Below, one piece after another: positions 32,056 to 58,560 of a stretch of 64,000 bases of DNA. The notes beneath the pieces were generated by a model. The model was not told the DNA's origin, ran no database searches, and was given only the letters and a program-made list of their open reading frames with translations. The DNA is from Candidatus Omnitrophota bacterium (GTDB lineage Bacteria > Acidobacteriota > Aminicenantia > UBA2199). Location of the stretch: NCBI GenBank assembly GCA_050258455.1, contig JBLMYT010000132.1, forward strand, positions 82,349 to 146,348, in the 5' to 3' direction. Every line of letters starts with the position of its first letter. The first letter of the stretch is position 1. A program made the position numbers and the translations under genes.

Positions 32056-32131
32056 TCTTCCACCACTCGTTGAGAGTACAACACGTATAACTCACCCCAA
32101 AAAATTGAACATTAAGAGTAAACAGCTCCCA

Positions 32132-33862: not shown

Positions 33863-34015
33863 ACGTTAAAATAACATCAAAATGCTAAAGTGGCAGAGAC
33901 CCATTGAAAAACCGATTAAATGTCTCCCCCCGATCGGGTGAGATTAAATAAAGCACGTCAAGAGGGAGAGCATGACATGCTCTCCCTCTTATTACTTTAT
34001 TGTTTTAATGTGATT

Positions 34016-38575: not shown

Positions 38576-39601
38576 TTACTTTTTGGTTTCATCCTTTTTG
38601 GCAGCGCTCTCGATGAGTTCTTCAGGCTTCTTTAGGATCTGTTCCGAGTTCCATTGAGCGATACAAAACACAAAAGGACTTTCCGATGAAATGGCCGGAT
38701 AGATATATTCTTCCATTCCTTGTTCGGAAGCTTTTCGATCCGTTTCCAAAATTTTGGGGTAGAGATAAGCATGATATTCTTTGCTTTTACTTTTCAATTT
38801 CGCAGAAAAAATGGGAGCTTGAGATTTACCGAATTCTTCCTTGGTTTTATCGTCGATGTACTTCCGACAAATGATGAAACTCAACTGGCTGAGAATGGAA
38901 TCGATATTGGCTTTAACTGCTTTTTTACCATCGGGAGTTACCCATTCGACATCCGAGCCCGGAAGATTTTGCGTCGGATCATTCTTTTTCTCCGGCGACT
39001 TGGGAAGGATCTTCTTGATAAAATGGAGTTTGGCCCCACCGGTTTCGATCTCAATATCATCGATGTTTTCGATGGTAAACTTCATGACCAGTTTATCGCG
39101 AAGTTCATCTTTCCTCAGATCCACGTCATCCCGAAACGCGTCCAGGGCATAGTACACCTTGTCATCGTTCTCAAGTTTGACAAACGTGTGATGGTCGGTG
39201 GGGGCGACCCGCCCGACGTCGAACCTCCGAATGACCTGACCGTTGTGATAGGCGATGACCCGGATCACGTTGGTCGGGTCCAGATCATATAAAGCGAAAT
39301 TTTTGGCTTTAGAGGCCAGATCGGTCAGGGTCAGTTTGCTAATGATTTCATTTATTCGCTTGATCTTGTCTTCATCCGGTGCATACCCTTTGGGAGGAAT
39401 GGTCCAGTTGGAATTGTTTTTAACGGCGAGGTAGGTTTTTCCCTTTTTGATGATCTCAATTTTATCGATATCTTCGACTTTAATCGGTTTCATCTGGGGA
39501 AGCCGATAATTGAGTTTATCACTTTTTCGTAAAATTAAATACCCACCCAGGATCAGGATGATCCCGACGATTATAATCAGTTCTTTTCTCATCGATTTCA
39601 T
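38576..39601 (-). CDS. DUF4340-like protein, the last gene of a GldG-type ABC operon
   Basis: An N-terminal transmembrane anchor, then a charged extracytoplasmic domain; it sits directly after a GldG-like gene, as is typical. Confidence 0.6.
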   Translation of the reverse strand: MKSMRKELIIIVGIILILGGYLILRKSDKLNYRLPQMKPIKVEDIDKIEIIKKGKTYLAVKNNSNWTIPPKGYAPDEDKIKRINEIISKLTLTDLASKAKNFALYDLDPTNVIRVIAYHNGQVIRRFDVGRVAPTDHHTFVKLENDDKVYYALDAFRDDVDLRKDELRDKLVMKFTIENIDDIEIETGGAKLHFIKKILPKSPEKKNDPTQNLPGSDVEWVTPDGKKAVKANIDSILSQLSFIICRKYIDDKTKEEFGKSQAPIFSAKLKSKSKEYHAYLYPKILETDRKASEQGMEEYIYPAISSESPFVFCIAQWNSEQILKKPEELIESAAKKDETKK

Positions 39602-39619
39602 GATCGCCTCCGGTATTGT

Positions 39620-41845
39620 TTATTTTTGCTGAGAAAACATCAGTTGAATTTTGCGTTTCCGACGAACACGTCGAATCCAAAGGACAATTCCCAGAGCGAT
39701 AAACAGCGCCGGCAACCCACCGATGTTAAATATTTTAATGGCCATTTTGGTAAACGGTTTGGTATCTTCAATGGGGTTAAATTTCTGATTTTTACTTCGC
39801 ATCACGGCGATATCTTCGCGGTTATTGAGGTAATCAAAGGCATTTAAAACAAAGAGGGCATTGGGCGAATTGGCTTCTTCATCGATCACATTGTTCTTGA
39901 GAATCTCGGTTGTTCCGATCAGAAAGATTTTTCCGGGTTTGACTGCCCGGGTAAGGATCTCTTTTTTACCCTTGATGACGGATCCCTTTTGTGCGGATTC
40001 GGCCGTGGCCTTGGTGTCTTCTTTGGTCACACCGGTGGATTCTTCTGTGGTCACCGCGGGTTTATCGGGAACCGGTTTCCCTGCAAAATAACTGGAGAAA
40101 TGACCTTCCAGGAGGTAAGCCAGGGGCTGGGCAAATTTTTCTTTGGGGTTGGTCGGCGGTTTGAGCATATAGGGCATCAAGCTAATGCGGCCCTTCATCT
40201 CCCATGACTTGTCCGAAGACGTGAACAATGGATTCAGGGTTAAGTTATTCCGTTTGATCTTTTCCTGAAGCGCTTCCACCGGAGAGGCCTTGATCATCAC
40301 GAGCTGCTTGATGTTTTCAATGAATGGCAATTTATGATTGATGTTTTCATTCTTGATCATGGGAACGTAATAGATGGAGGTTTGCTCGCCGGTTTGTTCT
40401 TTGTTGACGTAACAGTTTTCATCCATGACGTATGATTTTTTTACTTTCAAACCGTAAAATTCAAGGAGTTTTTCCAGGCCGGTATTGATGGGAATATAAT
40501 AGGTTTCCGGAACGCCCTGTTCCTTGACCGTGATTTCATTGAGACTGTCCAGAAAAATAGCCAGCGATTTTCCCTTCATCAGGAATTGATCGATCTGGAG
40601 GAGCTGGTAATCGGAAAATTTTTCCCTGGGACCGGATATCACTAATGTATCGATATTATCCGGGATGCCATCCAGCAGGTTGACGTCTTTGACGCTGTAT
40701 ATTTTGGTTAACACCATGTTTAAGTTATCGAGGGTTTCCTTTTTGGGAGGACGGGCCATGCCGGGTTCGAATTTTTTCGGCAATATGGGGTTCAGGAGCC
40801 GGCATTCATTGGTATTGAGGTACCCGATGCTGTCATTGAGTTCGATCAAATTATCGACGTTGTCGCTGATGAAGTTTTCCATTTCATTCGAGTCGATGAT
40901 CGAAAATTGTTCCGCAATCCCCTGAGGGGTATAAGCCATTTTTCGATCGAGTAAATTCCGCTGAGTGGTTTTATCGCCGAATTGCATCACCAGGGCAGCC
41001 ACGCCATTACCGGCAGGGATCACGGCGCCGTTGGGCGCTTTGATTTCCGGCCATTGCAAACCGAATTGTTCCAGGAGCCCCTGTTGCCCCGGTGTGCCGG
41101 GGGCATAAGCGGGATCATCGAACGCGCATTCCAATTTCCCATAGGTTTTGGGATTCAATCGCTCGACCGCGCCCTGAACCGAGGAGCGCACGGTATCGAG
41201 ACCGCGCAGATTGACCAGCGGCGCAATCATGGCAAGAGACGGACTCACGACCGCTGTAATCTTGATCTTCCGGGGTAATTTCAACAGTGCGGAAACCTTG
41301 GCGGTCATGTTCTTGATGCCGGTGGTAATTTTGTATTCGAGCCCATCGGTTGAGGTCACGGATGGAATTCGGGAAACGAGGTCGCCATGGAGTAAGGCGA
41401 TTCCCATGTAGGCCCGCTGCATTTTGGCTTCATCCTGCTCGATCTTCTGGACATTGACCGGGGTAATCCCAAAACTCTCGGCCAGTTTGCGGTTGACCTG
41501 TTCGGTTTCGCTCAGGTCGCCCTCTTTGGCCGTGACGTCGTAAAACCGGTAACTTAAGTTGTGATTGGAGTAAATTTCGAATTCGTTGAGCAGGTCATGG
41601 AGGTAGAGCTCCACGTTGCTGTAGGGGGCCGGGAGGTTCTTGGAGAAAAAGACATCGATGGTCAGGGGTTCCTTGAGGGACGAGACCACCTCTTTACTGG
41701 CTTTGGATAAGGAATAGAGATGGTTGGATGTTAAATCCGCCCGAAAAAAGAGGGTAATACCCACGAGGTTAATCAAGACGATAATCACCAGGTAGAGAAC
41801 GAATTTGTAATATTTTTGAGAGGGTTTATAATCTTTCGCAGCCAT
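39620..41845 (-). CDS. gldG: GldG-like ABC transporter auxiliary component
   Basis: 741 aa, with N- and C-terminal transmembrane helices flanking a large periplasmic domain; it follows an ABC-2 permease gene. Confidence 0.7.
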   Translation of the reverse strand: MAAKDYKPSQKYYKFVLYLVIIVLINLVGITLFFRADLTSNHLYSLSKASKEVVSSLKEPLTIDVFFSKNLPAPYSNVELYLHDLLNEFEIYSNHNLSYRFYDVTAKEGDLSETEQVNRKLAESFGITPVNVQKIEQDEAKMQRAYMGIALLHGDLVSRIPSVTSTDGLEYKITTGIKNMTAKVSALLKLPRKIKITAVVSPSLAMIAPLVNLRGLDTVRSSVQGAVERLNPKTYGKLECAFDDPAYAPGTPGQQGLLEQFGLQWPEIKAPNGAVIPAGNGVAALVMQFGDKTTQRNLLDRKMAYTPQGIAEQFSIIDSNEMENFISDNVDNLIELNDSIGYLNTNECRLLNPILPKKFEPGMARPPKKETLDNLNMVLTKIYSVKDVNLLDGIPDNIDTLVISGPREKFSDYQLLQIDQFLMKGKSLAIFLDSLNEITVKEQGVPETYYIPINTGLEKLLEFYGLKVKKSYVMDENCYVNKEQTGEQTSIYYVPMIKNENINHKLPFIENIKQLVMIKASPVEALQEKIKRNNLTLNPLFTSSDKSWEMKGRISLMPYMLKPPTNPKEKFAQPLAYLLEGHFSSYFAGKPVPDKPAVTTEESTGVTKEDTKATAESAQKGSVIKGKKEILTRAVKPGKIFLIGTTEILKNNVIDEEANSPNALFVLNAFDYLNNREDIAVMRSKNQKFNPIEDTKPFTKMAIKIFNIGGLPALFIALGIVLWIRRVRRKRKIQLMFSQQK

Positions 41846-41855
41846 TTTAATCTCC

Positions 41856-42635
41856 TTATTTTTTTTCTTCCATAATCAGGTGTGCCCCGTACAAGGCAAT
41901 AAACATGACCGATAGGAAGTATATGATATCGCGGCTGTCCACCATCCCCTTGGCGACATTATAGAAATGGTAATTGCTGCTGAAATATTGGAACGTTTTT
42001 ACGAGTTTATCGGGCAGGAAGTACAGGAGGAAATCGGTAAACAGGGTTAGCGAAAAGCAGATGGCCACGCCGATAATAAACGAAACGACCTGGTTACGGT
42101 TGAGGGAGGACGCCAGGAGTCCGACGGCGCAGTAGGTGGCTCCCAACAGCATGGCGCCGAGGTAACCGCCAATGACCGGGCCCCAGTCCAGTTTCCCGAC
42201 GATGGTTACCGATATGGCATAAGACAGGGTCGGTAAAAGCATGACGCCGACAAACGCCACCGCTGCAAGGAATTTCCCCACAATGATGTCTCGGAACGTC
42301 ACGGGAAGGGTCAACAGCAATTCGTAGGTTCCGACGTTGATTTCTTCCGAAAAGAGGCGCATGGTCAGGGCCGGGAGGATAAACGAAAACGTTACCGGCA
42401 GGATGGAGAAAAACCGGGTCAGGGTGGCCTGGCCATTGAGGAAGAAGGTGGAAAAGAACATCCAACCGATGATCAACAGGAAAAGTGAGATAACGATGTA
42501 AGCGATGGGAGAAATGAAATAGGCCATAAATTCCCGTTTAAAGATGTGTTTGATATTCTGGGTATATTGAATTTTGATTTTGGTTTTAGTTTCCATTAGT
42601 GACTCCCTTTGTAATTCGTCTGAATATATCTTCAA
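41856..42635 (-). CDS. gldF: ABC-2 family permease (GldF-like)
   Basis: Six transmembrane helices; an alternative start at the METKTKI codon (about 42596) is possible. Confidence 0.75.
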   Translation of the reverse strand: MKIYSDELQRESLMETKTKIKIQYTQNIKHIFKREFMAYFISPIAYIVISLFLLIIGWMFFSTFFLNGQATLTRFFSILPVTFSFILPALTMRLFSEEINVGTYELLLTLPVTFRDIIVGKFLAAVAFVGVMLLPTLSYAISVTIVGKLDWGPVIGGYLGAMLLGATYCAVGLLASSLNRNQVVSFIIGVAICFSLTLFTDFLLYFLPDKLVKTFQYFSSNYHFYNVAKGMVDSRDIIYFLSVMFIALYGAHLIMEEKK

Positions 42636-43314
42636 AGGATTCGTTCCGGGTTAACTCGTGGAGTTGCTCGATGGTGTAATCGGCCGCGAGCTTGCCGCGG
42701 TTAATGATCAAGACACGGTCGCAGGTGAGTTCGGCTTCGCTCAGGATATGGGTCGAGAAGATAATGGTTTTTTCTTTGCCGATCCGTTTGATGATGTCAC
42801 GGGTTTCGGCAATCTGGTTCGGATCGAGGCCGGACGTCGGTTCATCCAAAACCAGGATTTCGGGGTTCCCCATTAAGGCATGAGCGATACCGACCCGTTG
42901 ACGGTATCCCTTGGAGAGCTGGTTAATGTTTTTATGCATTACCTCGGTGAGACTGCAAAGTTCTGCCAGGTCTCTGATGTGGGAAAGCTTTTGTTTTTTC
43001 GGAACGCCCCGGATATCCGCCACATAATTGAGATAATCGTATACCATCATTTCATGATAGAGGGGTGCGGATTCCGGAAGATAGCCGATAAGTTTTTTAA
43101 TTTCCAACTGGTGATCATGGATGTTGTAGTCTTTGACCCGAATATTCCCGGAGGTAGCCTGGAGATATCCGGTCAGAATTCGGTAAGTAGTGGATTTGCC
43201 TGCGCCATTGGGGCCGAGAAATCCGAGGATTTCCCCTTTCTTGACTTCAAAGCTGATCTTGTCCACTGCGCAGAAGTTCCCGTAGAATTTGGTCAGGTTC
43301 TCAAACGTTATCAT
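42586..43314 (-). CDS. gldA: ABC transporter ATP-binding protein (GldA-like)
   Basis: GPNGAGKST, LSKGYRQRV and LVLDEPTSGLD motifs. The start is chosen at MITFENL, which has a GGAG ribosome-binding site. Confidence 0.85.
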   Translation of the reverse strand: MITFENLTKFYGNFCAVDKISFEVKKGEILGFLGPNGAGKSTTYRILTGYLQATSGNIRVKDYNIHDHQLEIKKLIGYLPESAPLYHEMMVYDYLNYVADIRGVPKKQKLSHIRDLAELCSLTEVMHKNINQLSKGYRQRVGIAHALMGNPEILVLDEPTSGLDPNQIAETRDIIKRIGKEKTIIFSTHILSEAELTCDRVLIINRGKLAADYTIEQLHELTRNESFEDIFRRITKGVTNGN

Positions 43315-43493
43315 GCGCTTCTCCTTTTTCTTCCCGCGAGGCAACGTCTGGTTGAGGCAGTTACGTGTAAACCCGCGGCTTTTTTATTTATGTTCATTTG
43401 TCAATGTACATACTGAATTTATGTGCGTGAATTTTTACTCTCAAAATAAGATTTTACCAGAATTACGGGTTTTGTCAAGGGCGTTAAATGGAC

Positions 43494-44843
43494 TCACTCG
43501 TTTGATGTTTTTTGTCGAAGAAATCCGATAAATGGACGCCCCGAGCGCCACTCCCGGACGATGAATAAAATCAGAAGCGGCAGGTATTCAATCGCCATCC
43601 AGAGAACCGAATCGCTCCATCTCCCCGTTGTTTTGTAGCGGTAAACCACGGCGTAACTGGCAGCCATCGTCCCGGACCACAGGGCAATGGCCGGATGGGC
43701 CGAGAGGCAGAGCAAACCGGTAAGAATTGTTAAATACCAGGGATGAATGGTCGGATTCAGCACCACAAACGCCAGAACGGCGACCATTATTTTTTTATTT
43801 AATGGGAAAGGGCGAAGTAACATCCGGAGGTAAACCGCGGCAAATAAGACAAAAGCGGCCATGTGCGCGGCGGCATTGGTTTTAAAAATGAAAAGGAGAG
43901 CAAAAAACAGCGGGTTATTAAAATACCACCTGGTAGAATAGTTCAACACCACGTTTAATAAATTCGTCGCCGATGAAAAATACAAGGCATAAAAACCCAG
44001 TCCGGTGAGAAGCAGCGGGATAACGAAGCGGTATAGCGGATGAGTGATTCGAGTGATCCGGTCCCTGGGTCCGTAGCCGGGGTTCTTGATCAAATAGAAG
44101 AAAAGAATCGGAAGCAGAATCACGGGGATTAACTTGGTCATCACGGCACACGCGGCAGCCATTCCGGAAAGAACAAAGCGACGGTCATCAAACAGCCAGA
44201 GGCTCAACAGAACGAAGAAAACCATGAGAATATCGAGGTGACCGTTGATGGCAGTTTCCATGATTACCAGTGGGTTCCAGGCAAAGAACAGAAACCACCG
44301 GGGAGAACCGGAGAATCGTTGGAGCAGGAGATAAAAAATAGTCATACTGCCGCAAGCCGTTAAGAGAAAGAGGAATTTCATCCCCGTGAGGCTCTCGCCG
44401 AAGAGCGTGTAGGACAGCAAGAAGAAGACCTGAGCCATGGGCGGATAAATGGTTTTGAGCGTCGGGAAATTGACCCGCTCGGGTAAGACTTCGGAATGAT
44501 ACGGCGCTAAGACCGGATCATTGGGGGCGTAGGTGTACGGGTTGATATGGTTGGCTTGAATCTTTCCGTCCCAGATATAGCGGTAAATGTCGTCGGATTG
44601 ATCGGGCGGCGTGGTCATGAGGGTCAAACCGAAAAGCAAGGAAAAGAGAATGACGGTGAGCGCGAAGGAACGCGAAAAGGGTTGTTTTTTGGATAAACCA
44701 AAGGCGATGGCAGTCAGGATAAACACCGCTGCCCATACAATCGTGTAGAGGATCACGGCTTGCGCGGGGGTTTTGGGGTAAAATTTATAGAATAAAAAGA
44801 GGGTTTCGATCAGTAAACCGAAAATAAGGTACAAGGGATGCAT
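43494..44843 (-). CDS. Polytopic membrane glycosyltransferase-like protein (DUF2029/GT87-like)
   Basis: About 12 transmembrane helices and a conserved DxD-like region (DDIYRYIWDG) in the first periplasmic loop. Confidence 0.5.
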   Translation of the reverse strand: MHPLYLIFGLLIETLFLFYKFYPKTPAQAVILYTIVWAAVFILTAIAFGLSKKQPFSRSFALTVILFSLLFGLTLMTTPPDQSDDIYRYIWDGKIQANHINPYTYAPNDPVLAPYHSEVLPERVNFPTLKTIYPPMAQVFFLLSYTLFGESLTGMKFLFLLTACGSMTIFYLLLQRFSGSPRWFLFFAWNPLVIMETAINGHLDILMVFFVLLSLWLFDDRRFVLSGMAAACAVMTKLIPVILLPILFFYLIKNPGYGPRDRITRITHPLYRFVIPLLLTGLGFYALYFSSATNLLNVVLNYSTRWYFNNPLFFALLFIFKTNAAAHMAAFVLFAAVYLRMLLRPFPLNKKIMVAVLAFVVLNPTIHPWYLTILTGLLCLSAHPAIALWSGTMAASYAVVYRYKTTGRWSDSVLWMAIEYLPLLILFIVREWRSGRPFIGFLRQKTSNE

Positions 44844-44858
44844 CGGGATGCGCCCGGG

Positions 44859-45920
44859 TTAGGAAACGGGACGAGTGAAGCGGCATTCGGGGTAATTGGC
44901 ACACCCCAGAAACGACCCGAACTTTCCCTTGTGCGGCTTGAGGAGCCCCCCGCATTCGGGACACACCTGGGTCCCGTCGATATTGGGATCTGCGGCGGCA
45001 TTACGCTCATTAACGCCGAGGTTTTGGGTAAATTTACATCGGGGGTAATTTCGGCACCCCAAAAACGCTCCGAATTTCCCCTTTCTTTCCTGCAACTGGC
45101 CGCCGCACAGCGGGCAGGCTTCCAGATACGCATCGGGGCTGGCGGCTTTTCCGGTGGCCGACTCGCGGGACGCGTCACACATGGCGTTGTACCCACACCA
45201 CAGGCACAGCATGGAGGGTTTGGCCACAAAGGCGTCGGGTGACGTATTTAATATGGTATCGATTTCGCGGAGTAAATCCTCTCGGACCTTTTGGGCCTCC
45301 TCACGGGAAAACCGAACAACAATCGCGCGGTTTTCCTTTAAATGTTCGTAACACAATTCGATCTCCGCTTCCGACCGGTTTAAGAACAGGTACAGGGCAT
45401 AAGACGGGAGTTGAAGGGTACTCAACGGATGGTCCACTTTCCCGGTTTTATAATCGGTGATGCGAAGGGTCCCGTCCGAATGAAGCGCGATCCGGTCGAT
45501 GACACCGCGGAAAACAATGTCATCCCTTAAGGGAAATTCGAACTCATGTTCCAGGTGAAGGGTGAAGCTGCGATCCTCGAAAAATACCCGGTGAAAATAC
45601 GCGGAAACAAAGGCACGGCCCTGATGGTAATAATCGTCCCGTGTGGTGGTGTCTTTGACAATTTTAATGGTTTCAAAATCTCCCTGATGCCAAAACCGTT
45701 CGTATTGCTCCAGGGTCAGCGGAAGGGACGGCTCGGTTCCCTGGCGCCGCTGGTCATAAGCCCATTCCAGGGCCTGATGAACCGTACTTCCCATATAGGC
45801 TTCAATCGACGAGAACGCCTCGGGTAATTGCCGAATGTATTTAAACTCAAACGACCGGGGACAGGTTTTAAAACTGGAAATCCCGGAAAAACTAAAATGC
45901 GTTAACGCTGGTGCTGTCAT
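44859..45920 (-). CDS. PD-(D/E)XK nuclease-family protein (Cas4/RecB-like) fused to two C-terminal topoisomerase-type C4 zinc ribbons
   Basis: A nuclease core motif ITDYKTGK, then CPLCGGQLQERKGKFGAFLGCRNYPRCKFT and CPECGGLLKPHKGKFGSFLGCANYPECRFT. Confidence 0.7.
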   Translation of the reverse strand: MTAPALTHFSFSGISSFKTCPRSFEFKYIRQLPEAFSSIEAYMGSTVHQALEWAYDQRRQGTEPSLPLTLEQYERFWHQGDFETIKIVKDTTTRDDYYHQGRAFVSAYFHRVFFEDRSFTLHLEHEFEFPLRDDIVFRGVIDRIALHSDGTLRITDYKTGKVDHPLSTLQLPSYALYLFLNRSEAEIELCYEHLKENRAIVVRFSREEAQKVREDLLREIDTILNTSPDAFVAKPSMLCLWCGYNAMCDASRESATGKAASPDAYLEACPLCGGQLQERKGKFGAFLGCRNYPRCKFTQNLGVNERNAAADPNIDGTQVCPECGGLLKPHKGKFGSFLGCANYPECRFTRPVS

Positions 45921-45987: not shown

Positions 45988-47877
45988 TCATGCGACAAAA
46001 TCGCCGATTCCAAATTGATCCAGAAAGATACCGAAGGTAATGACCGTGATGAGTAAATCGCTGTCAAACGGTAAATTGAGGCGGAATCCTTCCTGGCTGT
46101 ACTGTTTTTTTAACCGTTCCACGCTGTCGGGGTTAAAATAACCCTGCTTTTTAATGCGTTCATAGGAAAGCAGGTCATTGATGTATTCAATATTGCGATT
46201 CAATAAGTAAGGACTTCCCGGCGCCACAAACCCGAATTTCTCCCGCTTGATGATTTCCGGGGGAACGAGGCCGGAAGCCATGCGCTTGACGATGTACTTT
46301 TCATCGAAGTCCTTTAACTTCAAATCCGGGGGAACGGTGGCTGCAAATTCCACGAGGTTTTTATCGAGAAACGGATAGCGGGCTTCGACCGAATTGGCCA
46401 TGGCCTGCCGGTCCCCGTGATCGGAGATCAAATGATCGGCCAACCGAAGTTTATAATCCAGGTAAGACCGCTTATGGATGTTGTCCCTGTTTTTTAGCCG
46501 TTCGTTGTTCACGACGAAATGGTTGATGCAGTGAATGGCATCAAAGTCTGCGTTCACCTGTTCGGAGTACAAATCCCGTTTGACTGCGGAAAAGGCGTAT
46601 TTGAATTTCTCATAGAAGAAGTTTTCATCGCCCCATAACCGCCGACGGATGGCGTCTTCAAACGGGGTTTCGGGCGTGACGGTTTTCTTTTGCATCTGCC
46701 GCATTTTATCGAATCGGTATCCGACATAACCGGCAAAAAATTCGTCCGACCCTTCACCAGTGAGAACCACCTTGATGTTGTGGCTTCGAACCGATTCGGA
46801 TAACGCAAAAGACGCGGTATTGTAGGTTTCTTTGATGGCGCATTCGCAGTGCCGGATGGCCTGGGGTAAGCGGGAACTGATATCCCCGAACCGAAACAGG
46901 ATTTCATGATGATCGGAATTCACGGATTTTGCCATGAGCCGCTGAAATTTGGATTCGGATATCTCTTTTTCCAAAAAATCGATCGCAAAGGAATGCCGTC
47001 GATTCTCGGGGGTGAGTCGATGCGTCAAGGCAGTGATGACCGACGAATCCAATCCCCCACTGATATAAATGCCCACCGGAACATCGGACCGAAGCCGTAA
47101 CCGCACGGATTCGGTAATCAATTCCTCGAGCCGTTTGACGTAATACGCGTCATCGTGTCGGTAATCGGCGGCATGAATTTCCGGATAAATGACGTCCCAG
47201 TATTCGACATCCCGAATCTCGTCGCGATCGCCGTCCGGTTTCACGAGTAAATAATGACCGTTTTCCAGACTCTTAATGTGTTTAAACATGGTTCGGGGGC
47301 TGACCAGTCCGGGAAAGGTAAACACCTGGTCCAGGCCCACGAGGTCGGCTTCGCGCTTAACGCCCGGATATTCCAGAATGGCTTTGATTTCCGAACCGAA
47401 GATAAACAGTCCGTCGACCAGGGTATAGAAAAAGGGAAGCACGCCGAAATGGTCTCGGGCGCAGAATAACTGCTGTTTTTTAAAATCGAAAATGGCAAAG
47501 GAAAATTGGGCGTTGAGTTGATTTAAAAACTCCGGGCCCGATTCTTCGTAAAGGTGAACCAGAACTTCGACGTCAGTCCGGGTTTTAAAGGTGTGCCCGC
47601 GCTGAATCAGATCTTCTCGGAGCTCGATGTAATTGAATATTTCACCGTTGCAGATGAGCATGATGGAGCCATCTTCGTTAAACAGGGGTTGCATGCCCCC
47701 TTCCAGGTCGATGATGCTGAGCCTGGAAAAACCGAACCCCAGGTTTCCGTGGTTGGCGATAACCACATTTTCGCCGTCGGGTCCACGGTGATAGAGTTGG
47801 GCGGTCATGCGTCGGATCACGGCCTCATCGACCCGGCCCCGCTGTCTTAAATCAAACATTCCGCAAATTCCACACAT
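45988..47877 (-). CDS. asnB: Asparagine synthetase B-family glutamine amidotransferase
   Basis: The start is set at MCGICGM, since an Ntn amidotransferase requires Cys at position 2. The PP-loop motif SGGLDSS is present. Confidence 0.85.
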   Translation of the reverse strand: MCGICGMFDLRQRGRVDEAVIRRMTAQLYHRGPDGENVVIANHGNLGFGFSRLSIIDLEGGMQPLFNEDGSIMLICNGEIFNYIELREDLIQRGHTFKTRTDVEVLVHLYEESGPEFLNQLNAQFSFAIFDFKKQQLFCARDHFGVLPFFYTLVDGLFIFGSEIKAILEYPGVKREADLVGLDQVFTFPGLVSPRTMFKHIKSLENGHYLLVKPDGDRDEIRDVEYWDVIYPEIHAADYRHDDAYYVKRLEELITESVRLRLRSDVPVGIYISGGLDSSVITALTHRLTPENRRHSFAIDFLEKEISESKFQRLMAKSVNSDHHEILFRFGDISSRLPQAIRHCECAIKETYNTASFALSESVRSHNIKVVLTGEGSDEFFAGYVGYRFDKMRQMQKKTVTPETPFEDAIRRRLWGDENFFYEKFKYAFSAVKRDLYSEQVNADFDAIHCINHFVVNNERLKNRDNIHKRSYLDYKLRLADHLISDHGDRQAMANSVEARYPFLDKNLVEFAATVPPDLKLKDFDEKYIVKRMASGLVPPEIIKREKFGFVAPGSPYLLNRNIEYINDLLSYERIKKQGYFNPDSVERLKKQYSQEGFRLNLPFDSDLLITVITFGIFLDQFGIGDFVA

Positions 47878-47973
47878 GGTTGATCCCTCGATGTTGAATT
47901 TAATATAATAGCGTATCACACATTTCGGAATTTTCAATACCCAAAATAAAAAAGTTTTTGGCCCCACCTTTTT

Positions 47974-50900
47974 TCAAAAAGGTGGGCGGCAAACGTTGAT
48001 AAAGGAACGGATCACACCGATCAGAATCACGGAAAGGGTAAACACGGTAATAAGCATCGGGTCTCCGGTTAGCGTCATCATGCTGACAATCAGGGCAATG
48101 AGGGTCAAGGCAATGGCGAAAAGAAGAATCCGACACTTGAGGTATGGCTTTTGGCGCCATTCATCCGACGGAGACGGGATCGCTCGTTTCGAGTTTCCCC
48201 CCAAGGCATCGACGCGGTCTGCGACTTGCTTCACGTATCGCGTAAACACGGAAAACCAACGGTTGTGTTCGGGAATTTCCCGTTCGATCCACCGTAAATT
48301 GGCCAACAGGCGTTCTTCGCGGGCAACGATTTCCTCTTTTTCCCGCACCGGAATCGTGATCTGAAACGACCCCAGGACCCGCCGCTGATTTCGCGGACGA
48401 GAGGCCGCTGCCAACCGCACCTCTTCCCTGGGGATAAACGCCCGCGTCAATGTCGTGACCTGCCGCACAATGATCGTAAACGCCTGCCCTTTTCGGATGG
48501 TTTCCGGAAGGTCGATCGTGATCATCCCGACCTCATTGCCGCCTTCCCCTTTGGGGATCGGAATATAATCGATACCGCCCGTCTCACATTGCAGCGTATG
48601 GGAATCGATTCGCACAACGTGATGGGACCGGTACAGTTTCATGGCTAGTTCGAGAACTTCGTTGGTATCCACACCCGGAAGGTAAATCGTGGCCAGACTC
48701 CCGGCCGGCGTATTGCCCCAATCGATCATCAGTTCGTCCGGAACCTCATCGGGCGTTAATTCCGATCCGGTCGGTCGGAATTCAAAGGTATGAGGAATGC
48801 GACGCGAGGCAATAGTTCCCGGATTGGCGGATTCTACAATCGCCAGGTTGCGTTGGGCGAGTTTATCCGAAAGCGATGGCGACGCACCGGTGAGAATAGG
48901 TGCCGGATCAAAGGCAATTTCCGCCACCAAACACTGGTGCTGGTTTCGGATGAGTTCCTGAATCGTCTTTCGGTTCACGGCCGCGTAAGGCCCATCGGGC
49001 GGCGTCGGGTAAATCGGAAACTGAGGTTGCGTTTGGTTAATATCCAACCAACACCCGAAATACCTCACGACCTCGTTGCCGTTTAAATCCGCCGGAATCT
49101 CCCGAACGTTGACCGGATCGGTTTGCTGACTCATGGATACGGCCGAGGAGTCGATCCGCGGGGCAGCGAAAAACGGAATCGTCATGAGTTCGCCCCCACT
49201 CAGACCGAGGAGCGCGTTGACCTCCGTGCCCTGGGTCGAACGGCGATAATTGGTGGCCGGATCGTACGCCAGAGAGGTTGATGACGCCGGGAAAGATCGA
49301 AAAAAAACGCGCACGTTGTGCGCCGCTTGAACTTTGGCCCGATAACGGACTTTGGCAATGGCATAATTGTAAACCGGGATACCGTCGACGGTCTGAGAAA
49401 GCTCCAATCGGGAGAGTTGAGGATCCGCGGATATGCCCTCGAACCCCTCCCCGCCTGTGGCGCCACTGTTCAGGTTGTGAAGCACACCGGCGATGAAATC
49501 ATTGGGATCACCGCTCATCGTCTGATTAAACCGCATGTCACCGGTCTTGATCTGAAACACGCGCAAATCCGTGCTGAGCCAGGTGATTTCCCCATCGATT
49601 TCATAGGGATTGGGTTGCGTGGTCAGGTATATACTCGCATTCGCCGATACGGTGGACAGGGAGGCGGTCAAATTCACGATCTGAAAATCGCTTGCCGCAA
49701 AAGCGTTATTACCGGTAAAACGAATCCGGTATTTCCAGGTGATGCGCTGTCGGCGCAGGAGATGATCCGGGTCTTCCAGGCCGATGGTGGCCATGACTTC
49801 AACGGCCATTTGCGGCACATCCGGGGAGAGTGTCAGCGTGGGGTGAATATTGGGAACGCCCACGAGGGTAATGTCGGTGATACCGAGTTCCGAAGGCGTA
49901 AAGCCGTCAACGATGACAAAGAATGCACTGTTGATATTGGCCGGATTGACGATAGTCAATAACGCGTCGACTTCGTCTTTTGAAATATTGCTTCGGTCAA
50001 CGATGAACGCACATTTTTTCTCCAGGGGACAGACATACGGAGGCGGACCATACGCACTGCATTCTTCATTGAGCCGGAGTCGATACAACTCCATGTCATT
50101 ATCGGCTTGCACCTGGGTCGCTGTTCCGCCGCCATAGTTGTACCGATCCCAGGCCGAAGACGTCAGGTCCGCACCCGGGTCTCCCTGAACGGTTTTCCAT
50201 TCCTCGAGCGTCACCGGCCGGTTAAAGAGGGAGGGATCGATCACCATTTTGACCGCCGGCCCATCGTTTGGTTTGACCAGTAAGGTCGGGGCCACGTGCC
50301 ACCCCCAGTACACTTCACACTCGGGAACGTTGGCGGTCAGCACATGTAAATTCCCGGATATCCAGATTTTTTCCGGCGTTTCCCCCTGAGCTTGCATCAG
50401 GTAACACATCATGTGGGCTCGGATCCAGCATCCGTCGTACGGGTACTTGAAGGGGATGCAGGACGCTTCCATTGCACAGGGGATACAGGACTGTGTTTTC
50501 ATCTGATTAAAGAGTTCGACGGCCCGGTTCCAGGTTACCGGCGGATCCGGAGGGTTCGAGGCCGGGGACTCCGGCGATTCGTTTTCTCCAAATGAGGGCG
50601 GAAGGGGCCGAACATCGATGATTTCAAAATCATTGGCCGCGGTCACCTGGACGGTTGTCTGCGTATTCAGGGCGTTTTGCAGCGCGTCGCGAATATCTTG
50701 AAAATCGGGATTATTGCGTCGGATATAATAGCGGGCTTCGGAGGTAGAGAAAAAAACATAAACGACGTCTCCCCCCTGATCCGCGATTCTTAACACGTTG
50801 GCTGCCTGGGGCACATACAAGGCCGTGATGATCCGGGTATCCGGATCGATTTCCACATACACCGGCCGATTGTTCTTTCGGAGGTACTCGATTATTTTTA

Positions 50901-51066
50901 CCCAAACCGATGCACGCGGATAACTCAAATCCAAAAGACCTTTTCGGTCTCCTTCCAGGATCACTGTCTTCAGTTGCGGCGTTCCCGGAAATGGCCGGAT
51001 GCCTCGCATCTCCGAGGACGGGGAAATACTCGTGATTTTACCGATAAGGGCATTTTGTTTGGACAT
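47974..51066 (-). CDS. Large hypothetical protein (1030 aa) with an internal papain-fold protein-glutaminase-like domain and two C-terminal transmembrane helices
   Basis: Residues about 185-310 (LFNQMKTQSC..SCIPFKYPYDGCWIRAHMM..YGNLH..WGWHVA..IDPSLF) resemble the protein-glutaminase family (recalled from memory, no search run). There is no signal peptide; the C-terminus is hydrophobic. Confidence 0.55.
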   Translation of the reverse strand: MSKQNALIGKITSISPSSEMRGIRPFPGTPQLKTVILEGDRKGLLDLSYPRASVWVKIIEYLRKNNRPVYVEIDPDTRIITALYVPQAANVLRIADQGGDVVYVFFSTSEARYYIRRNNPDFQDIRDALQNALNTQTTVQVTAANDFEIIDVRPLPPSFGENESPESPASNPPDPPVTWNRAVELFNQMKTQSCIPCAMEASCIPFKYPYDGCWIRAHMMCYLMQAQGETPEKIWISGNLHVLTANVPECEVYWGWHVAPTLLVKPNDGPAVKMVIDPSLFNRPVTLEEWKTVQGDPGADLTSSAWDRYNYGGGTATQVQADNDMELYRLRLNEECSAYGPPPYVCPLEKKCAFIVDRSNISKDEVDALLTIVNPANINSAFFVIVDGFTPSELGITDITLVGVPNIHPTLTLSPDVPQMAVEVMATIGLEDPDHLLRRQRITWKYRIRFTGNNAFAASDFQIVNLTASLSTVSANASIYLTTQPNPYEIDGEITWLSTDLRVFQIKTGDMRFNQTMSGDPNDFIAGVLHNLNSGATGGEGFEGISADPQLSRLELSQTVDGIPVYNYAIAKVRYRAKVQAAHNVRVFFRSFPASSTSLAYDPATNYRRSTQGTEVNALLGLSGGELMTIPFFAAPRIDSSAVSMSQQTDPVNVREIPADLNGNEVVRYFGCWLDINQTQPQFPIYPTPPDGPYAAVNRKTIQELIRNQHQCLVAEIAFDPAPILTGASPSLSDKLAQRNLAIVESANPGTIASRRIPHTFEFRPTGSELTPDEVPDELMIDWGNTPAGSLATIYLPGVDTNEVLELAMKLYRSHHVVRIDSHTLQCETGGIDYIPIPKGEGGNEVGMITIDLPETIRKGQAFTIIVRQVTTLTRAFIPREEVRLAAASRPRNQRRVLGSFQITIPVREKEEIVAREERLLANLRWIEREIPEHNRWFSVFTRYVKQVADRVDALGGNSKRAIPSPSDEWRQKPYLKCRILLFAIALTLIALIVSMMTLTGDPMLITVFTLSVILIGVIRSFINVCRPPF

Positions 51067-51159: not shown

Positions 51160-51199
51160 AATAAAGCCCCCAGGGTGGTGAAGGTCACCCTGGGGGCTT
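51160..51199. terminator. Bidirectional rho-independent terminator hairpin
   Basis: aaagcccccagggtg-gtgaagg-tcaccctgggggcttttt. Confidence 0.7.
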
Positions 51200-51248
51200 T
51201 TTATTTAAACTGGGTGCATCGGCGATAATAAAGGAACCACTTAACTGC

Positions 51249-51761
51249 TTAAAACTTCCACCTCAGACCGACCTGAAGGGTGGAGAACTCGACGCCTCGT
51301 TTGGCAGGGTACGCGTCGTGGTAATTGTAGGCGAATTCCAACGCCACCGAAGGCTTGATTTGATAATCAAGACCTGCCCCGAGGTTAAAACCGATCTGGT
51401 CGTGCCCGGACCAATTCGATGGCTTTTGCAAATAGAGCCCAAATCCACCGTTAACGTAAGGCTTAAGCGAGCCACCCGTGATAAAATAAATCCGGCCGTT
51501 GAGCGACATCTGCCAGACATGAAGATTAGCGGCAGCCTTGCCCATGAGCCGATGATAACCCAACACCCCTTCGAGCGTGATCCAGGGATTCAGGTAATAT
51601 TCGAGTCCCACATTGGCGCTGATTCCCGGGTCGTAGGTCCGATGCGGAATGGCCATCCCCAACCGGGCGCTCATGGCGATATCGGCCGAAACCATGTCCC
51701 CCACCAGGAATAAAATAACCACGGCGAATAAGCCGAGTTTCATCAATTTTTTTATACTCAT
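51249..51761 (-). CDS. Small outer-membrane beta-barrel protein (OmpW/OmpA-like 8-strand barrel), paralog 1
   Basis: A signal peptide, alternating hydrophobic strands and a C-terminal aromatic residue (GLRWKF). Confidence 0.7.
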   Translation of the reverse strand: MSIKKLMKLGLFAVVILFLVGDMVSADIAMSARLGMAIPHRTYDPGISANVGLEYYLNPWITLEGVLGYHRLMGKAAANLHVWQMSLNGRIYFITGGSLKPYVNGGFGLYLQKPSNWSGHDQIGFNLGAGLDYQIKPSVALEFAYNYHDAYPAKRGVEFSTLQVGLRWKF

Positions 51762-52041
51762 ATTTCCTCCTTAATAAATTTATGACTCAATCACTTTCTC
51801 TCTCTTCATTCCCCAAAAAATATCTTTAAAAAATTCGATCCATGTTTCATCGATCCGGGATAAGAATAATACAATTACCAAAATTTTTGTTCTATTTTTA
51901 TAGAAATGGAAACCTTTTTTTTTGAGGTTCGACAGGAAAGAATTTTTGGATATCAATTTTTATAAAATGATATTTTGGGGTTAAAATGTCTGGGGCAAAT
52001 TCATGGGAATCTTCAATTCAAAATAAGTGGATTTTAATCCA

Positions 52042-52085
52042 CCGCGGAACAGATAAACCCCCGGGGTCATGCTCACCCCGGGAGC
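52042..52085. terminator. Rho-independent terminator hairpin
   Basis: cccggggt-catgctc-accccggg, then a T/A-rich run. Confidence 0.55.
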
Positions 52086-52134
52086 TTTATTATTAAAATT
52101 TGTGTGCCTCGGCAAGGATGAAATCAAGGCACCA

Positions 52135-52677
52135 TTAAAAATGGAATCGAAGTCCGGCTTGAAGGGCTGAAAACTTGAGGCTCCAGTCTCCGGGTTGGAT
52201 ACAATGAAAGTTATACGCCAATTCCAAGGCCAGGGAGGGATTTAGGTAATAATCCAGCCCTGCACCGACGTTAAAGCCAAAGTGACTGGTCGCCGACTGG
52301 ATCCTTTCCTTTTGGAAATAAAGCCCAAACCCACCATTGACATAAGGTTTTAATGGACCAGCAGTGAAGAAATAAACGCGACCGTTTAGGGATAGCTGCC
52401 ATACATCAAGATTCGGAATGCCAAAACTTTTGCCCACGAGCATATGGTACCCCAAAACGCCTTCGAGCGTAATCGAAGGCGTCACGTAATAGTTAATACC
52501 AATATTTGCACTCATTCCAGGATCATAGAGACTCGAATGCGGGAAGGTCACTCCTACCCGGGCGCTTGCTGCCATTTGCATCGGATACGCCTCCCCCACC
52601 ATGAATAAAATCACTATTATGGCTAAACCGAATTTCATAACCTGGGGAATTTTTCCCCATAATGATTTGTTAGTCAT
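52135..52677 (-). CDS. Small outer-membrane beta-barrel protein, paralog 2
   Basis: The start is chosen at MTNKSLW, with an AAGGAGG ribosome-binding site 6 nt upstream; the C-terminus is GLRFHF. Confidence 0.7.
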   Translation of the reverse strand: MTNKSLWGKIPQVMKFGLAIIVILFMVGEAYPMQMAASARVGVTFPHSSLYDPGMSANIGINYYVTPSITLEGVLGYHMLVGKSFGIPNLDVWQLSLNGRVYFFTAGPLKPYVNGGFGLYFQKERIQSATSHFGFNVGAGLDYYLNPSLALELAYNFHCIQPGDWSLKFSALQAGLRFHF

Positions 52678-52688
52678 TTTTAACCTCC

Positions 52689-53219
52689 TTAAAATTTCCA
52701 TTTAAGCCCGGCTTGAAGGGACGAAAGCTCAATGCGCCAATATCCGGGTTTGATGTAATGAAAGTTATACGCCAATTCCAAAGCCCAAGAGGGATTTAAG
52801 TAATAATCCAGCCCTGCCCCAAGGTTAAAGCCGAAATCTTCGCTTCCGGGTCGTTGAATCGGTAATTGAACCGGTCTTTGAAAATAAATCCCGATCCCCC
52901 CATTGACATAGGGTTTTAATGGACCAATCACGGAGAAATAAATTCGACTGTTCAGGGACAGTTGCCAAATATTTATCGTGGCAGCGCCAAGCAGCTTCCC
53001 CCCAATCCGGTGATACCCCAAAACGCCTTCGAGCGTGATCGAAGGCGTCACGTAACATTCAAAGCCCCCATTCGAACCGATTCCCGGATAAGCCTCCATA
53101 TGCGGGAAGCTTACCCCTATCCGGGCATTTGCGGCCATTTGGGATGGATACATGTGTCCCATCATGACAAACATGACCGCGACGAAAAAACCGAGTTTCA
53201 TCAATTTTTGTATTCTCAT
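52689..53219 (-). CDS. Small outer-membrane beta-barrel protein, paralog 3
   Basis: A GGAGG ribosome-binding site; the C-terminus is GLKWKF. Confidence 0.7.
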   Translation of the reverse strand: MRIQKLMKLGFFVAVMFVMMGHMYPSQMAANARIGVSFPHMEAYPGIGSNGGFECYVTPSITLEGVLGYHRIGGKLLGAATINIWQLSLNSRIYFSVIGPLKPYVNGGIGIYFQRPVQLPIQRPGSEDFGFNLGAGLDYYLNPSWALELAYNFHYIKPGYWRIELSSLQAGLKWKF

Positions 53220-53235: not shown

Positions 53236-54543
53236 TTATGGTTTAATCAAATCTCCAGGCCAATCCAGCCCCAAGGCCAGACGGAAGCCAGGTGTAAATG
53301 ACGAATTTTTTTCCGAAACGACATTAACGGTCACCTCTTGAGCAATCGAATGAACCCCGTTTTGGATACCGAAAACCGTGTACGTGTAACTACCACCCGC
53401 CTTCTTTTGTTCCAATAGATCAAGGGGGGACGACTTGAAATCATCCGTAAACGCATTGGTTTTACCGGAATAGTAATCGGAGATCCGGTTTCCATTCCGC
53501 CAGATGACGACCATGTCATACTTCGTTCCGGGCGCCCACGTCAAATGAACCCGGCCGCTGTGAGGATCGCAGGTCGCTTGAAGATGGGTGACCGGCGGTA
53601 AAAATTCCAGACTCTGATCCGCTTCCATGATGGCAATCTCCTGAGGATCGATACATTGGATGCGAATCGTTGGCTGCCCGTTTGGCAGCAATTGCGGGAT
53701 GAGGTGAAGGTTTTTCCCCAGGTTCCGGTTCACTTTGAATTGCCGGTAAAGACGCTCCAAAAATTCGCTTAAATCCATTTGCTCTCCCGCTCGAACAACG
53801 ATCTCCTCATGGGCCATTCTCAGTGTAAAATTGCCCCTGACCACGGCATGGTCCGGAAACGCCAGGAGCGTGGAGTCCATGATCGAGTCCCCATCGTCTT
53901 CCGGGGGATTGGGTTGCAGGTCGGTAACCTCGAAACAATCCTCCTTCGGCTTTTTGGTCTCCGATTTGGTCTGTAAACAGGAATCGGAATAATAACTGTC
54001 GCAATCCAACCGGTCCTGCTTCACCTTGTCGGCCAGGGCACTATAAATATACATCCACCGGTCAAATTTCCCATCGTCATCATCATCGTTATAACCCTCC
54101 CAGGGCGATGGCCCATCCCTCGAAATCCAAACCGTGCCCAGAATCCGGTCGATTTTGCCGTTACAGTTTTGATCCGGTATCACGTAGAGACTGACGGTAT
54201 TGCGGCCGCCGAAGTAGGGACAAAGCCCCACAAAACGTTGTTTTCCTCCTTGAGGGATATAGAGACAGGCATAAAACGCCTTATCGATGCAGGCCACTTT
54301 CACTTCATTGCCCAAATCGTCGGCAATACTCGTACACTCAAAATCGGTGATACTGGAACAATTGATATCGCGAGTGCCCCTGGGCGTGTGGGGACCGCAA
54401 GGAACGCAGATCAGGGACGGGGCGGGAACCAATTGACGTTCCGATTCCACCTGCTGACCCTGAAACGAAACGGAAGATACAACCAAAATTAATACGAAGA
54501 TTTCGAGCTTAAAAAAACGGGTTTTCGGACTTAATACCTTCAT
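53236..54543 (-). CDS. Secreted hypothetical protein (Cys-rich N-terminal half, acidic DDDDD stretch)
   Basis: A signal peptide; no recognisable catalytic motif. Confidence 0.5.
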   Translation of the reverse strand: MKVLSPKTRFFKLEIFVLILVVSSVSFQGQQVESERQLVPAPSLICVPCGPHTPRGTRDINCSSITDFECTSIADDLGNEVKVACIDKAFYACLYIPQGGKQRFVGLCPYFGGRNTVSLYVIPDQNCNGKIDRILGTVWISRDGPSPWEGYNDDDDDGKFDRWMYIYSALADKVKQDRLDCDSYYSDSCLQTKSETKKPKEDCFEVTDLQPNPPEDDGDSIMDSTLLAFPDHAVVRGNFTLRMAHEEIVVRAGEQMDLSEFLERLYRQFKVNRNLGKNLHLIPQLLPNGQPTIRIQCIDPQEIAIMEADQSLEFLPPVTHLQATCDPHSGRVHLTWAPGTKYDMVVIWRNGNRISDYYSGKTNAFTDDFKSSPLDLLEQKKAGGSYTYTVFGIQNGVHSIAQEVTVNVVSEKNSSFTPGFRLALGLDWPGDLIKP

Positions 54544-57441: not shown

Positions 57442-58560
57442 ATGACGAATAATATTATCACTAACTATAAAAAACTATCGTGTTTTATTTTGATATTCAT
57501 CTTTTCCGTTTGGGGATTCTGCCACCAACGCGTCCAAAAGGAACCGAAAGCTTATGAAGAATTAAGCAGCATTGGATTTTACCCGGAAAGTCCGGATCAA
57601 GGCCCCCTTACCGCAATCATAAACATCAAAAAGAGTACCGGTTATTCCGGCACTCTCTGTCAAGCCGGTTCCACCGAATACATCCGCTTCTTTGTGGATT
57701 GGAACAGCGACGGCGATTTTAACGATCCGGGCGAAAGCGTTGGCCTCGCCACCGTAAATGTTCACGATATTCCCCGAAACTCCGATCGCGTGAGAGAAAA
57801 CAGAGAAAACAAACCGCTGTCTTATGCGGTTTCCATTCTACTCAAACCGAAAAACAAAACCTTCTGCCAACAACCGTTCCTGGTCAAGGCTCGGGCCATT
57901 CTCTCCTGGAATCAAGCTCCCCTACCCAACGATCCGGATTATACGCCGGTTTATGGACATGTCATCGATCAATGGATCCAAATCAAACCCAGATGGAAAT
58001 GGTGGTCATTCACCGAACCCTTAATCAATATACCACTAAAACCCACGGACTTTCTTTCCGAATCCGAATTCATGAAACTATTTAAATCGAATGGAGAGCA
58101 ATCGCGTGATGAGTCGCTTCCGGTGAACCAATCCAATACCGCTTATGAACAACTGAACGGCGTGGGTTGGGATGACCATCAGGAAACGTTGACGGCCACA
58201 ATCACGATTAAAAAACCTTACGGTTTTTCCGGGGACCTGTGTCAACCGGGAAGTAACGAAAACGTGGCATTTTGGGTTCAAACCAAAGGATCAAACGGTG
58301 CCCAGTGGAAATACCTGGGAACGGCTTCCGTGAATATTCATGATATTCCGGGACTTCCGGCGAGCGGGCTGCACTACTCGGTTCATTTACCCGTGGATTT
58401 ATCTGCTTACCGGTCGTCGTGCGTAAAACCCGGACTGTTGAACATTCGCGCCATTCTGTCCTGGATTCGAACGCCGACTCCCAATGTCCCGAATTTCGCG
58501 CCCGTGTGGGGAAATGCCTTTGATGCGGTCATTCAATTGAAACCAAAGAAACATCAATGA
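57442..58560 (+). CDS. Secreted hypothetical protein made of two homologous tandem domains of about 170 aa
   Basis: Internal repeat: ..IKKSTGYSGTLCQAGS..VNVHDIP..ILSWNQAP..PVYGHVIDQWIQIKP vs ..IKKPYGFSGDLCQPGS..VNIHDIP..ILSWIRTP..PVWGNAFDAVIQLKP. Confidence 0.6.
   Translation: MTNNIITNYKKLSCFILIFIFSVWGFCHQRVQKEPKAYEELSSIGFYPESPDQGPLTAIINIKKSTGYSGTLCQAGSTEYIRFFVDWNSDGDFNDPGESVGLATVNVHDIPRNSDRVRENRENKPLSYAVSILLKPKNKTFCQQPFLVKARAILSWNQAPLPNDPDYTPVYGHVIDQWIQIKPRWKWWSFTEPLINIPLKPTDFLSESEFMKLFKSNGEQSRDESLPVNQSNTAYEQLNGVGWDDHQETLTATITIKKPYGFSGDLCQPGSNENVAFWVQTKGSNGAQWKYLGTASVNIHDIPGLPASGLHYSVHLPVDLSAYRSSCVKPGLLNIRAILSWIRTPTPNVPNFAPVWGNAFDAVIQLKPKKHQ

Follow-up and report, generated by a model that had tools for sequence, protein, structure and literature searches.

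What is a domain resembling a secreted protein-glutaminase (PG) doing at the head of a 1030-amino-acid (aa) membrane-anchored protein, and does the AsnB-type amidotransferase encoded next to it have any part in its function? The locus lies on contig JBLMYT010000132.1 of a Candidatus Omnitrophota bacterium (assembly GCA_050258455.1), within a stretch of 64,000 nucleotides that was analyzed as a whole and is hereafter called the window. The first-pass annotation, made from the letters alone, had reported two co-directional open reading frames (ORFs) here and had read them as a deamidase paired with an amidotransferase. The ORF listing confirmed both genes, on the minus strand and at the positions given for them (Table 1), and the large protein has a 100% identical counterpart at NCBI, which comes from a metagenome-assembled genome (MAG) of Candidatus Omnitrophota and bears the name "protein-glutamine glutaminase family protein". 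The pairing itself did not survive comparison with related loci. Our answer, to which we assign a probability of roughly 60%, is that the large gene is a self-contained single-gene unit encoding a membrane-tethered, latent protein-Gln deamidase carried on an uncharacterised platform, with AsnB unrelated to it.

The likeness of the head to PG (EC 3.5.1.44), noted in the first-pass annotation, held at the levels of sequence, profile and fold. In Pfam, aa 183-292 match PF18626 (Gln_deamidase_2) at E 4.5e-33, with a score of 114.1 bits where the cutoff is 25, and the alignment spans profile positions 2-104 of 106. Among PDB sequences searched with phmmer, the best match was 8z3i, the Flavobacterium enzyme FBPG (E 4e-21), and the Chryseobacterium PG entries 2ksv, 3a54 and 2zk9 were found with E values of about 1e-19 (to 3e-19). 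These alignments bring the ydgC, WxxHVA and IDPSLF motifs of the large protein into register with the solved enzymes, so that Cys213 is aligned with the Cys of "vdgCyaRAH", His257 with "wsyHVA" and Asp277 with "iIDPSLF". In the mature Chryseobacterium enzyme, the corresponding triad is Cys42/His83/Asp103. The Cys213-His257-Asp277 triad is intact in the window protein and unchanged in 24 of 24 homologues.

The fold of the head is the papain/transglutaminase-like fold of PG, with an N-terminal pro-region. Family profile positions 97-340 align to residues 34-276 of the pro-enzyme, and the alignment to the NCBIfam PG model begins at residue 95 of the large protein. Because both alignments reach into the pro-enzyme, aa ~96-155 are homologous to the PG pro-region, and the pro-region that had been suspected in the N-terminal extension is indeed present. 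The NCBIfam PG equivalog NF040782 was not passed (90.9 bits against a cutoff of 250); judged by these models, the large protein is a member of the PG family and not an orthologue of the secreted enzyme. Between the pro-region and the catalytic domain, at the position of the pro/mature junction, lies a Pro-rich linker with a block mean of 57 in the predicted local distance difference test (pLDDT) of the AlphaFold2 (AF2) model. In homologues this linker has the consensus PPPPPPPDPPV and a variable length. By analogy with pro-PG, it may be the place at which the protein is cleaved.

The AF2 model, built from a 98-sequence alignment, has a mean pLDDT of 91.5 and a predicted TM-score (pTM) of 0.90 for the 1030-aa protein. 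The latter value indicates that the whole protein would pack as a confident compact particle and not as beads on a string. By hydropathy, the only strongly hydrophobic segments are aa ~974-998 and 1002-1026, which form the two C-terminal transmembrane (TM) helices. No N-terminal hydrophobic segment was found by hydropathy in the large protein, and a hidden signal peptide is excluded because 51066 is the most upstream possible start; the membrane tail and the missing signal peptide had both been anticipated correctly. Across the family, a hydrophobic N-terminus occurs in only 3 of 218 members, and these three are probably mis-called starts. Most homologues are ~1085 aa long and have four hydrophobic helices, two of them after TM2, and the window protein and a few others have two. 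In the four-TM homologues, Lys and Arg residues together number on average 2.15 ahead of TM1, 3.05 in loop 2-3 and 1.95 after TM4, against 0.05 in loop 1-2 and 0.20 in loop 3-4. Taken with the positive-inside rule, this pattern predicts an N-in/C-in topology with the N-terminal ~970 residues on the cytoplasmic side.

Between the head and the membrane tail lies a stretch that the first-pass annotation had described as about 650 aa of unassigned, beta-rich sequence. This description stands: DSSP on the AF2 model shows aa 345-965 to be beta-rich, the stretch forms a beta-sandwich-rich core with a terminal helical hairpin, and no Pfam, NCBIfam, PADLOC or PHROG match was obtained for this core, permissive thresholds included. 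A Pfam search at E<=10 with six cores likewise returned nothing, and a PDB sequence profile revealed no relative of the core. Nevertheless, the core belongs to a large family. In a genome scan, many relatives matched query residues ~350-970 only, and phmmer with the core alone, run against a library of 1.84 billion sequences (one per 50%-identity cluster), gave 1,451 matches at E<=1e-3, of which 555 reach E<=1e-30. The core is invariably C-terminal to the head among the family matches, and the N-terminal 300-780 residues of the relatives matched over the core alone are other enzymes. The heads include aspzincin M35, M14 carboxypeptidase, pro-kumamolisin/S53 and thermolysin M4 with an FTP propeptide, and further LodA lysine oxidase, tyrosinase, galactose/glyoxal-oxidase-like domains, Kelch and BNR propellers and uncharacterised heads. 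At least nine head types are therefore joined to one core, that is, a variable enzymatic domain on a conserved module. TM tails accompany the PG heads, and most other heads come with a soluble tail that is ~70 residues long and has the motif F.DF.GF. There are also headless members of 743 aa, consisting of the core and four TM helices, in three Chlorobiaceae MAGs; their genes have housekeeping neighbours, among them recO and the gene of a peptide-chain release factor.

The conservation of the core suggests a functional site and not a mere spacer. Among 98 diverse members, Q440, D500, F588-F589-R590, P631, F633, H710, C712, D734, Q738 and R739 are fully conserved, and the polar residues conserved in more than 90% include D650, N653, D675, N677, E716 and N740. 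In the last beta-sandwich, a basic loop (aa 873-894, about 48385-48450) has a pLDDT of 56-69 and varies extremely in both length and sequence among family members, and it could be a second protease-sensitive or regulatory site. The distribution of the family is rare and patchy, with about 369 matches among 185,579 species genomes from many bacterial phyla and archaea at ~50% identity; the PG-headed version is itself ~50% identical from Omnitrophota and cyanobacteria to Asgard archaea. Some genomes carry adjacent core-bearing paralogues. A phage origin was considered and rejected, as no PHROG match was found and Foldseek against BFVD gave generic Ig-like matches only. Nothing relevant on a PG-core fusion or on the core was found in the literature searched; a paper on toxins of extracellular contractile injection systems cites PG for its triad only. 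The name that the gene product bears at NCBI shows that the PG head is already known. The libraries and papers searched contain no description of the architecture, of the predicted location or, above all, of the core family.

It is important to consider three points that weigh against a self-contained unit facing the cytoplasm. First, a cytoplasmic place is odd for this family, as nearly all its head types are classically extracellular enzymes, which may point to an unrecognised route of export or release. Second, the PG head has seven cysteines besides the nucleophile that are invariant in the 24 homologues, and these could mean disulfides and hence an oxidising compartment. Third, the 97-nucleotide gap between the large gene and asnB has no canonical terminator, and co-transcription is possible.

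The first two points bear on an explanation in which the head and the core are exported or released by an unrecognised, signal-peptide-independent route and the core keeps the enzyme at the cell surface in the manner of a stalk or adhesin, with the C-terminal helices as its anchor or, in other subfamilies, the small soluble tail domain. Besides the secreted type of the heads, which retain their propeptides, and the many invariant cysteines, this explanation would account for the only structural neighbours of the core, which are the Ig-like arrays of surface proteins (cadherins, MSCRAMM adhesins, integrins and PrgB), and for a conserved face of W, Y, D, N, Q, H and R residues on beta strands that may resemble carbohydrate-binding sites. 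However, 215 of the 218 members lack an N-terminal hydrophobic segment, and the positive-inside pattern predicts a cytoplasmic N-terminal bulk. Moreover, the family occurs in diderm and monoderm bacteria and in archaea, yet no conserved secretion gene is found nearby. We consequently regard an extracytoplasmic location as quite improbable.

The modular family also invites a reading as a conflict system, with the core as a platform for swappable toxic or degradative heads that serve abortive-infection defence or antagonism between microbes. In the first case, the core would sense an invader and free the cytoplasmic zymogen, and the TM tail would either harm the membrane or tether the effector; in the second, release would occur by lysis. 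Consistent with such a role are the variable enzymatic heads joined to a conserved module of sensor size, the single-gene units, the rare and patchy spread across phyla and archaea and the adjacent core paralogues of some genomes. Several loci lie amid toxin-antitoxin, transposase, caspase-like or HEPN genes, and the window has a TIR-STAND-TPR gene and a Cas4-like nuclease gene nearby. LodA-type heads are antimicrobial generators of H2O2, which fits as well. On the contrary, the large protein has no match in PADLOC (PADLOC-DB 2.0, which covers known systems) or PHROG, and defence models matched only about 1-2 of the 77 immediate neighbours in 21 loci of the PG type. Neither a conserved immunity-like neighbour nor, in Pfam, a known trafficking domain in the large protein was found, and no secretion gene recurs nearby. 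The headless members lie amid housekeeping genes, sedolisin or tyrosinase heads would be unusual as cytoplasmic killers, and the G+C content at third codon positions (GC3) of the large gene equals that of its neighbours and gives no sign of recent transfer. A role in conflict therefore appears unlikely to us, and we continue with the membrane-tethered latent deamidase as the preferred reading.

That reading requires the amidotransferase to be an incidental neighbour. The downstream ORF is an AsnB-type enzyme, as had been proposed, with matches to the Pfam families Asn_synthase (E 3e-80) and GATase_7 (E 9e-40). Although it is listed from GTG 47967, its product begins with MCGICGM at ATG 47877, which is preceded by GAGGGA. 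Class II amidotransferases have their nucleophile Cys right after the initiator Met, so ATG 47877 is, by this motif, almost certainly the true start and asnB occupies 45988-47877. The protein passes the asparagine-synthase equivalog TIGR01536 (466.9 bits against a cutoff of 267.1) and keeps the N-terminal Cys. It fails the lasso-cyclase model NF033535 (235 bits against 525), the macrolactam cyclase model (40 against 300) and the PEP-CTERM amidotransferase model (408 against 817). Its closest PDB matches are the hydroxyamidotransferase 7ylz and E. coli AsnB, 1ct9.

The neighbourhood of the homologues was compared in 88 loci with flanks of up to 10 kb; 78 of these loci came from the scan of 185,579 genomes and ten from exact look-up. 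By tblastn, no AsnB was found in any of the 88 loci, and only the window AsnB itself was recovered as a positive control; a partnership with AsnB was rejected on this basis. None of the three closest relatives (62-66% identity) has an Asn_synthase protein encoded nearby. All-against-all clustering of crude gene calls in 82 loci gave no recurrent neighbour family, and no Pfam family recurs among the 77 immediate neighbours of the PG-type loci. Furthermore, the intergenic gaps of 97 and 182 nucleotides hold no credible small ORF for a precursor peptide. These results emphasize that asnB is an incidental, unrelated neighbour of the large gene.

Consequently, the original proposal of an amide-editing system, or of one resembling the lasso-type ribosomally synthesized and post-translationally modified peptides (RiPPs), can be considered largely refuted already and is, in our judgment, extremely improbable. 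It drew on two co-directional genes 97 nucleotides apart with no canonical terminator between them. Lasso-peptide systems do combine an AsnB-like cyclase with a cysteine protease that is transglutaminase-like, and RiPP-type enzymes do occur near a few relatives. These enzymes vary by locus, however, and their frequency does not exceed what chance would give, and the pairing is absent even from the closest relatives. The absence of a precursor-peptide ORF and the model scores of AsnB, an asparagine synthase by equivalog and not a lasso cyclase, further oppose the proposal. Such findings are what the first-pass annotation had itself named as refuting the pairing. Its alternative, a toxin-like deamidase of unusual topology, keeps its place as a possible reading.

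The flanks of the three closest relatives illustrate this variation, with radical SAM genes in one, a ThiF/YcaO/nitroreductase set in another and unrelated genes in the third. In locus L087 (4291-8571), from a 64%-identical relative, the PG-core gene is followed by an uncharacterised 296-aa gene and by ThiF-like, YcaO and nitroreductase genes, a set of the azoline RiPP type. In loci L086 and L083, radical SAM genes lie just upstream of the PG-core gene. Since these neighbours differ between loci, we judge them to be coincidental.

Protease genes adjoin the PG-core gene in a few other relatives. A Peptidase_C1 (papain-like) gene lies just downstream of it in Microcystis (L003/L004, 11510-12927), where a gene for a chagasin-type Inhibitor_I42 protein follows, and in Nitricoxidivorans (L083, 12254-14242). 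The two peptidases share 28% identity, no such gene occurs at the other loci, and in the genomes that have it the product could be an activating protease. In Azotobacter chroococcum (L001, 244-4056), a 1270-aa protein with Peptidase_S8 and VWA_2 domains, which may be a partner protease, ends 13 nucleotides before the PG-core gene; this arrangement was not seen elsewhere.

The large ORF is preceded by a strong AGGAGG Shine-Dalgarno sequence, and a terminator closes the upstream outer-membrane-protein gene, so the large gene starts its own transcription unit. At its other end, a 10-bp hairpin overlaps the stop codon with a fold z-score of -1.5. This hairpin is not a canonical terminator because its U-run is displaced from the stem, starting 9 nucleotides past it, and the spacing of 97 nucleotides to asnB is counted from ATG 47877. 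The overall G+C fraction of the large gene is high (0.544), but its GC3 of 0.628 equals that of the neighbouring genes, and recent horizontal transfer was therefore rejected as a piece of evidence.

Upstream of the large gene, the segments 51249-53219 and 53236-54543 (minus strand) encode three tandem OMP_b-brl paralogues of 170-188 aa, preceded by a 435-aa protein without a Pfam, NCBIfam, PADLOC or PHROG match. On the other side, a heterogeneous co-directional string of genes follows the 3' end of asnB. Directly adjacent (44859-45920, minus strand) is a 353-aa Cas4-like PD-(D/E)XK nuclease with two topoisomerase-I-type C4 zinc ribbons and weak PADLOC Cas4 matches. It is followed by a GT87/PMT_2-like membrane glycosyltransferase (43494-44843, minus strand), just upstream of a set at 38576-43344 (minus strand) of an ABC ATPase, an ABC-2 permease, a GldG-like ABC_transp_aux protein with DUF7088 and a DUF4340 protein. 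This last set looks like an envelope or gliding-type export cluster. Farther upstream, on the plus strand, the window encodes a 372-aa protein without a family match (57442-58560), beside it a predicted AAA-ATPase_like (PF09820) protein (58670-59989), and a 1084-aa protein (60403-63657) with an N-terminal TIR domain, a STAND-type AAA_16 NTPase and ~11 TPR repeats, an architecture typical of NLR/Avs-like defence proteins. The G+C content of the window reaches its minimum at 32001-34000 (0.357 against a mean of 0.453).

Table 1. Coordinates of the features discussed (window positions unless a related locus is named; residues refer to the large protein)
Feature	Position	Strand	Basis or remark
Large gene, 1030-aa protein (PG head, core, two TM helices)	47974..51066	-	ORF and translation
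N-terminal domain, aa 1-95	50782..51066	-	beta1-beta2-beta3-helix-beta4-beta5, probably OB-like fold
Homologue of the pro-PG pro-region, aa 96-155	50602..50781	-	
Pro-rich low-confidence linker, aa 156-178	50533..50601	-	candidate proteolytic activation site; sequence PPSFGENESPESPASNPPDPPVT
PG catalytic domain, aa 179-340	50047..50532	-	papain/transglutaminase-like; Cys213/His257/Asp277
Codon of Cys213	50428-50430	-	catalytic triad
Codon of His257	50296-50298	-	catalytic triad
Codon of Asp277	50236-50238	-	catalytic triad
Beta-sandwich-rich conserved core, aa 345-965, with terminal helical hairpin	48172..50034	-	DSSP on AF2 model
Helical hairpin ending the core, aa 910-954	48205..48339	-	
TM helix 1, aa 974-998	48073..48147	-	Kyte-Doolittle 19-residue means up to 2.68; helix in AF2 model
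TM helix 2, aa 1002-1026	47989..48063	-	hydropathy; helix in AF2 model
AsnB-type glutamine-hydrolysing amidotransferase, 629 aa, incidental neighbour	45988..47877	-	Pfam, TIGR01536
Terminator of the upstream outer-membrane-protein gene: G+C-rich hairpin of 17 bp flanked by T-runs at either end	51163..51200	.	hairpin analysis
Headless gene, Chlorobiaceae MAG locus L020	8086-10317		
Headless genes, Chlorobiaceae MAG loci L021 and L023	9998-12229		

These observations can be assembled into a working model of the large protein. The lack of a signal peptide and the positive charges next to the cytoplasmic helix ends suggest a tail-anchored protein whose enzyme and core would lie on the cytoplasmic side of the membrane. 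By analogy with secreted pro-PG, the protein would be made as a latent zymogen, whose thiol active site would become accessible once the pro-region is removed or displaced at the exposed linker. The predicted activity of the unmasked enzyme is the conversion of protein-bound Gln into Glu. The role of the core is the weakest step of the model; most likely it serves as a ligand- or target-binding or regulatory platform that sets where or when the head acts. We infer a platform and not a passive spacer because the core has invariant polar residues, exists in headless forms and carries many unrelated heads.

A broader version of the model extends to the whole family. The core would then be an undescribed, widespread platform (at least 1,451 50%-identity clusters, from many bacterial phyla as well as archaea) for interchangeable zymogens of the secreted type that lack a signal peptide, and would represent a new mode of storage, activation or deployment with the core as its sensor or ligand-binding engine. 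We put this forward tentatively, as a possible extension that we do not hold to be probable. If true, this could amount to an effector of a new kind, for conflict or abortive infection, or else to a Sec-independent device for release or anchoring that is likewise new.

To our knowledge, PGs have been known only as small secreted enzymes of Bacteroidota, and they are used in food processing. Here, the catalytic unit and its pro-region form the head of a large, tail-anchored protein that apparently faces the cytoplasm. The idea of a deamidase working with an amidotransferase can be dropped, and the interest of the locus rests on the core family and not on an operon. The core is absent from Pfam, NCBIfam and PDB, yet it is common to more than 1,000 protein clusters with other protein-modifying heads, and solving it would annotate a sizeable "dark" family. 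Such work could reveal a new logic of zymogen control or deployment, and the family could supply deamidases, proteases and oxidases of practical interest.

Several known systems offer points of comparison. The window AsnB shares with E. coli AsnB (1CT9) the TIGR01536 assignment, the N-terminal Cys and the GATase and Asn_synthase domains. It is ~75 aa longer, its best solved relative is the hydroxyamidotransferase 7YLZ, and it has no link to the large protein outside this genome. For the large protein itself, some likenesses are of architecture only. Animal transglutaminases (factor XIII) and peptidyl-arginine deiminases also join a side-chain-modifying domain to several Ig-like beta-sandwich or barrel domains; they gave weak Foldseek matches with TM-scores of ~0.1, have no sequence similarity and a different domain order, and are not evidence of homology. 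Cry protoxins (130 kDa, with their C-terminal half) and large clostridial toxins (with their N-terminal effector) are examples of protoxin-type architectures. They resemble the large protein in having a variable N-terminal effector, a conserved C-terminal module, no signal peptide and, as proposed for the large protein, proteolytic activation; no relationship of sequence or fold was detected, and the likeness is an analogy only.

Closer relatives are the other members of the core family, which NCBI names by their heads, such as the "M35 family metallo-endopeptidase" of Streptomyces jumonjinensis and the "S53 family peptidase" of Trinickia acidisoli. They have the ~620-aa core at 35-50% identity, with the same invariant residues and helical hairpin, and no signal peptide. 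They differ from the large protein in their heads (M35, S53, M14, M4, LodA, tyrosinase, galactose-oxidase-like or BNR) and in having a soluble tail in place of TM helices. At the other end of the molecule, the closest system is pro-PG, represented by Chryseobacterium proteolyticum (PDB 3A54/3A56; mature enzyme 2ZK9/2KSV) and Flavobacterium FBPG (8Z3I), with which the large protein shares the catalytic fold, the Cys-His-Asp triad and the order of pro-region and mature enzyme. Known PGs are ~320 aa long, carry a signal peptide, are secreted and are then activated by extracellular proteases, and pro-PG shows either no activity or an activity lower by about 17-fold as long as its propeptide is uncleaved (PMC13139226). 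The large protein departs from this plan in lacking a signal peptide and in adding an N-terminal domain, a 620-aa C-terminal core and a membrane anchor.

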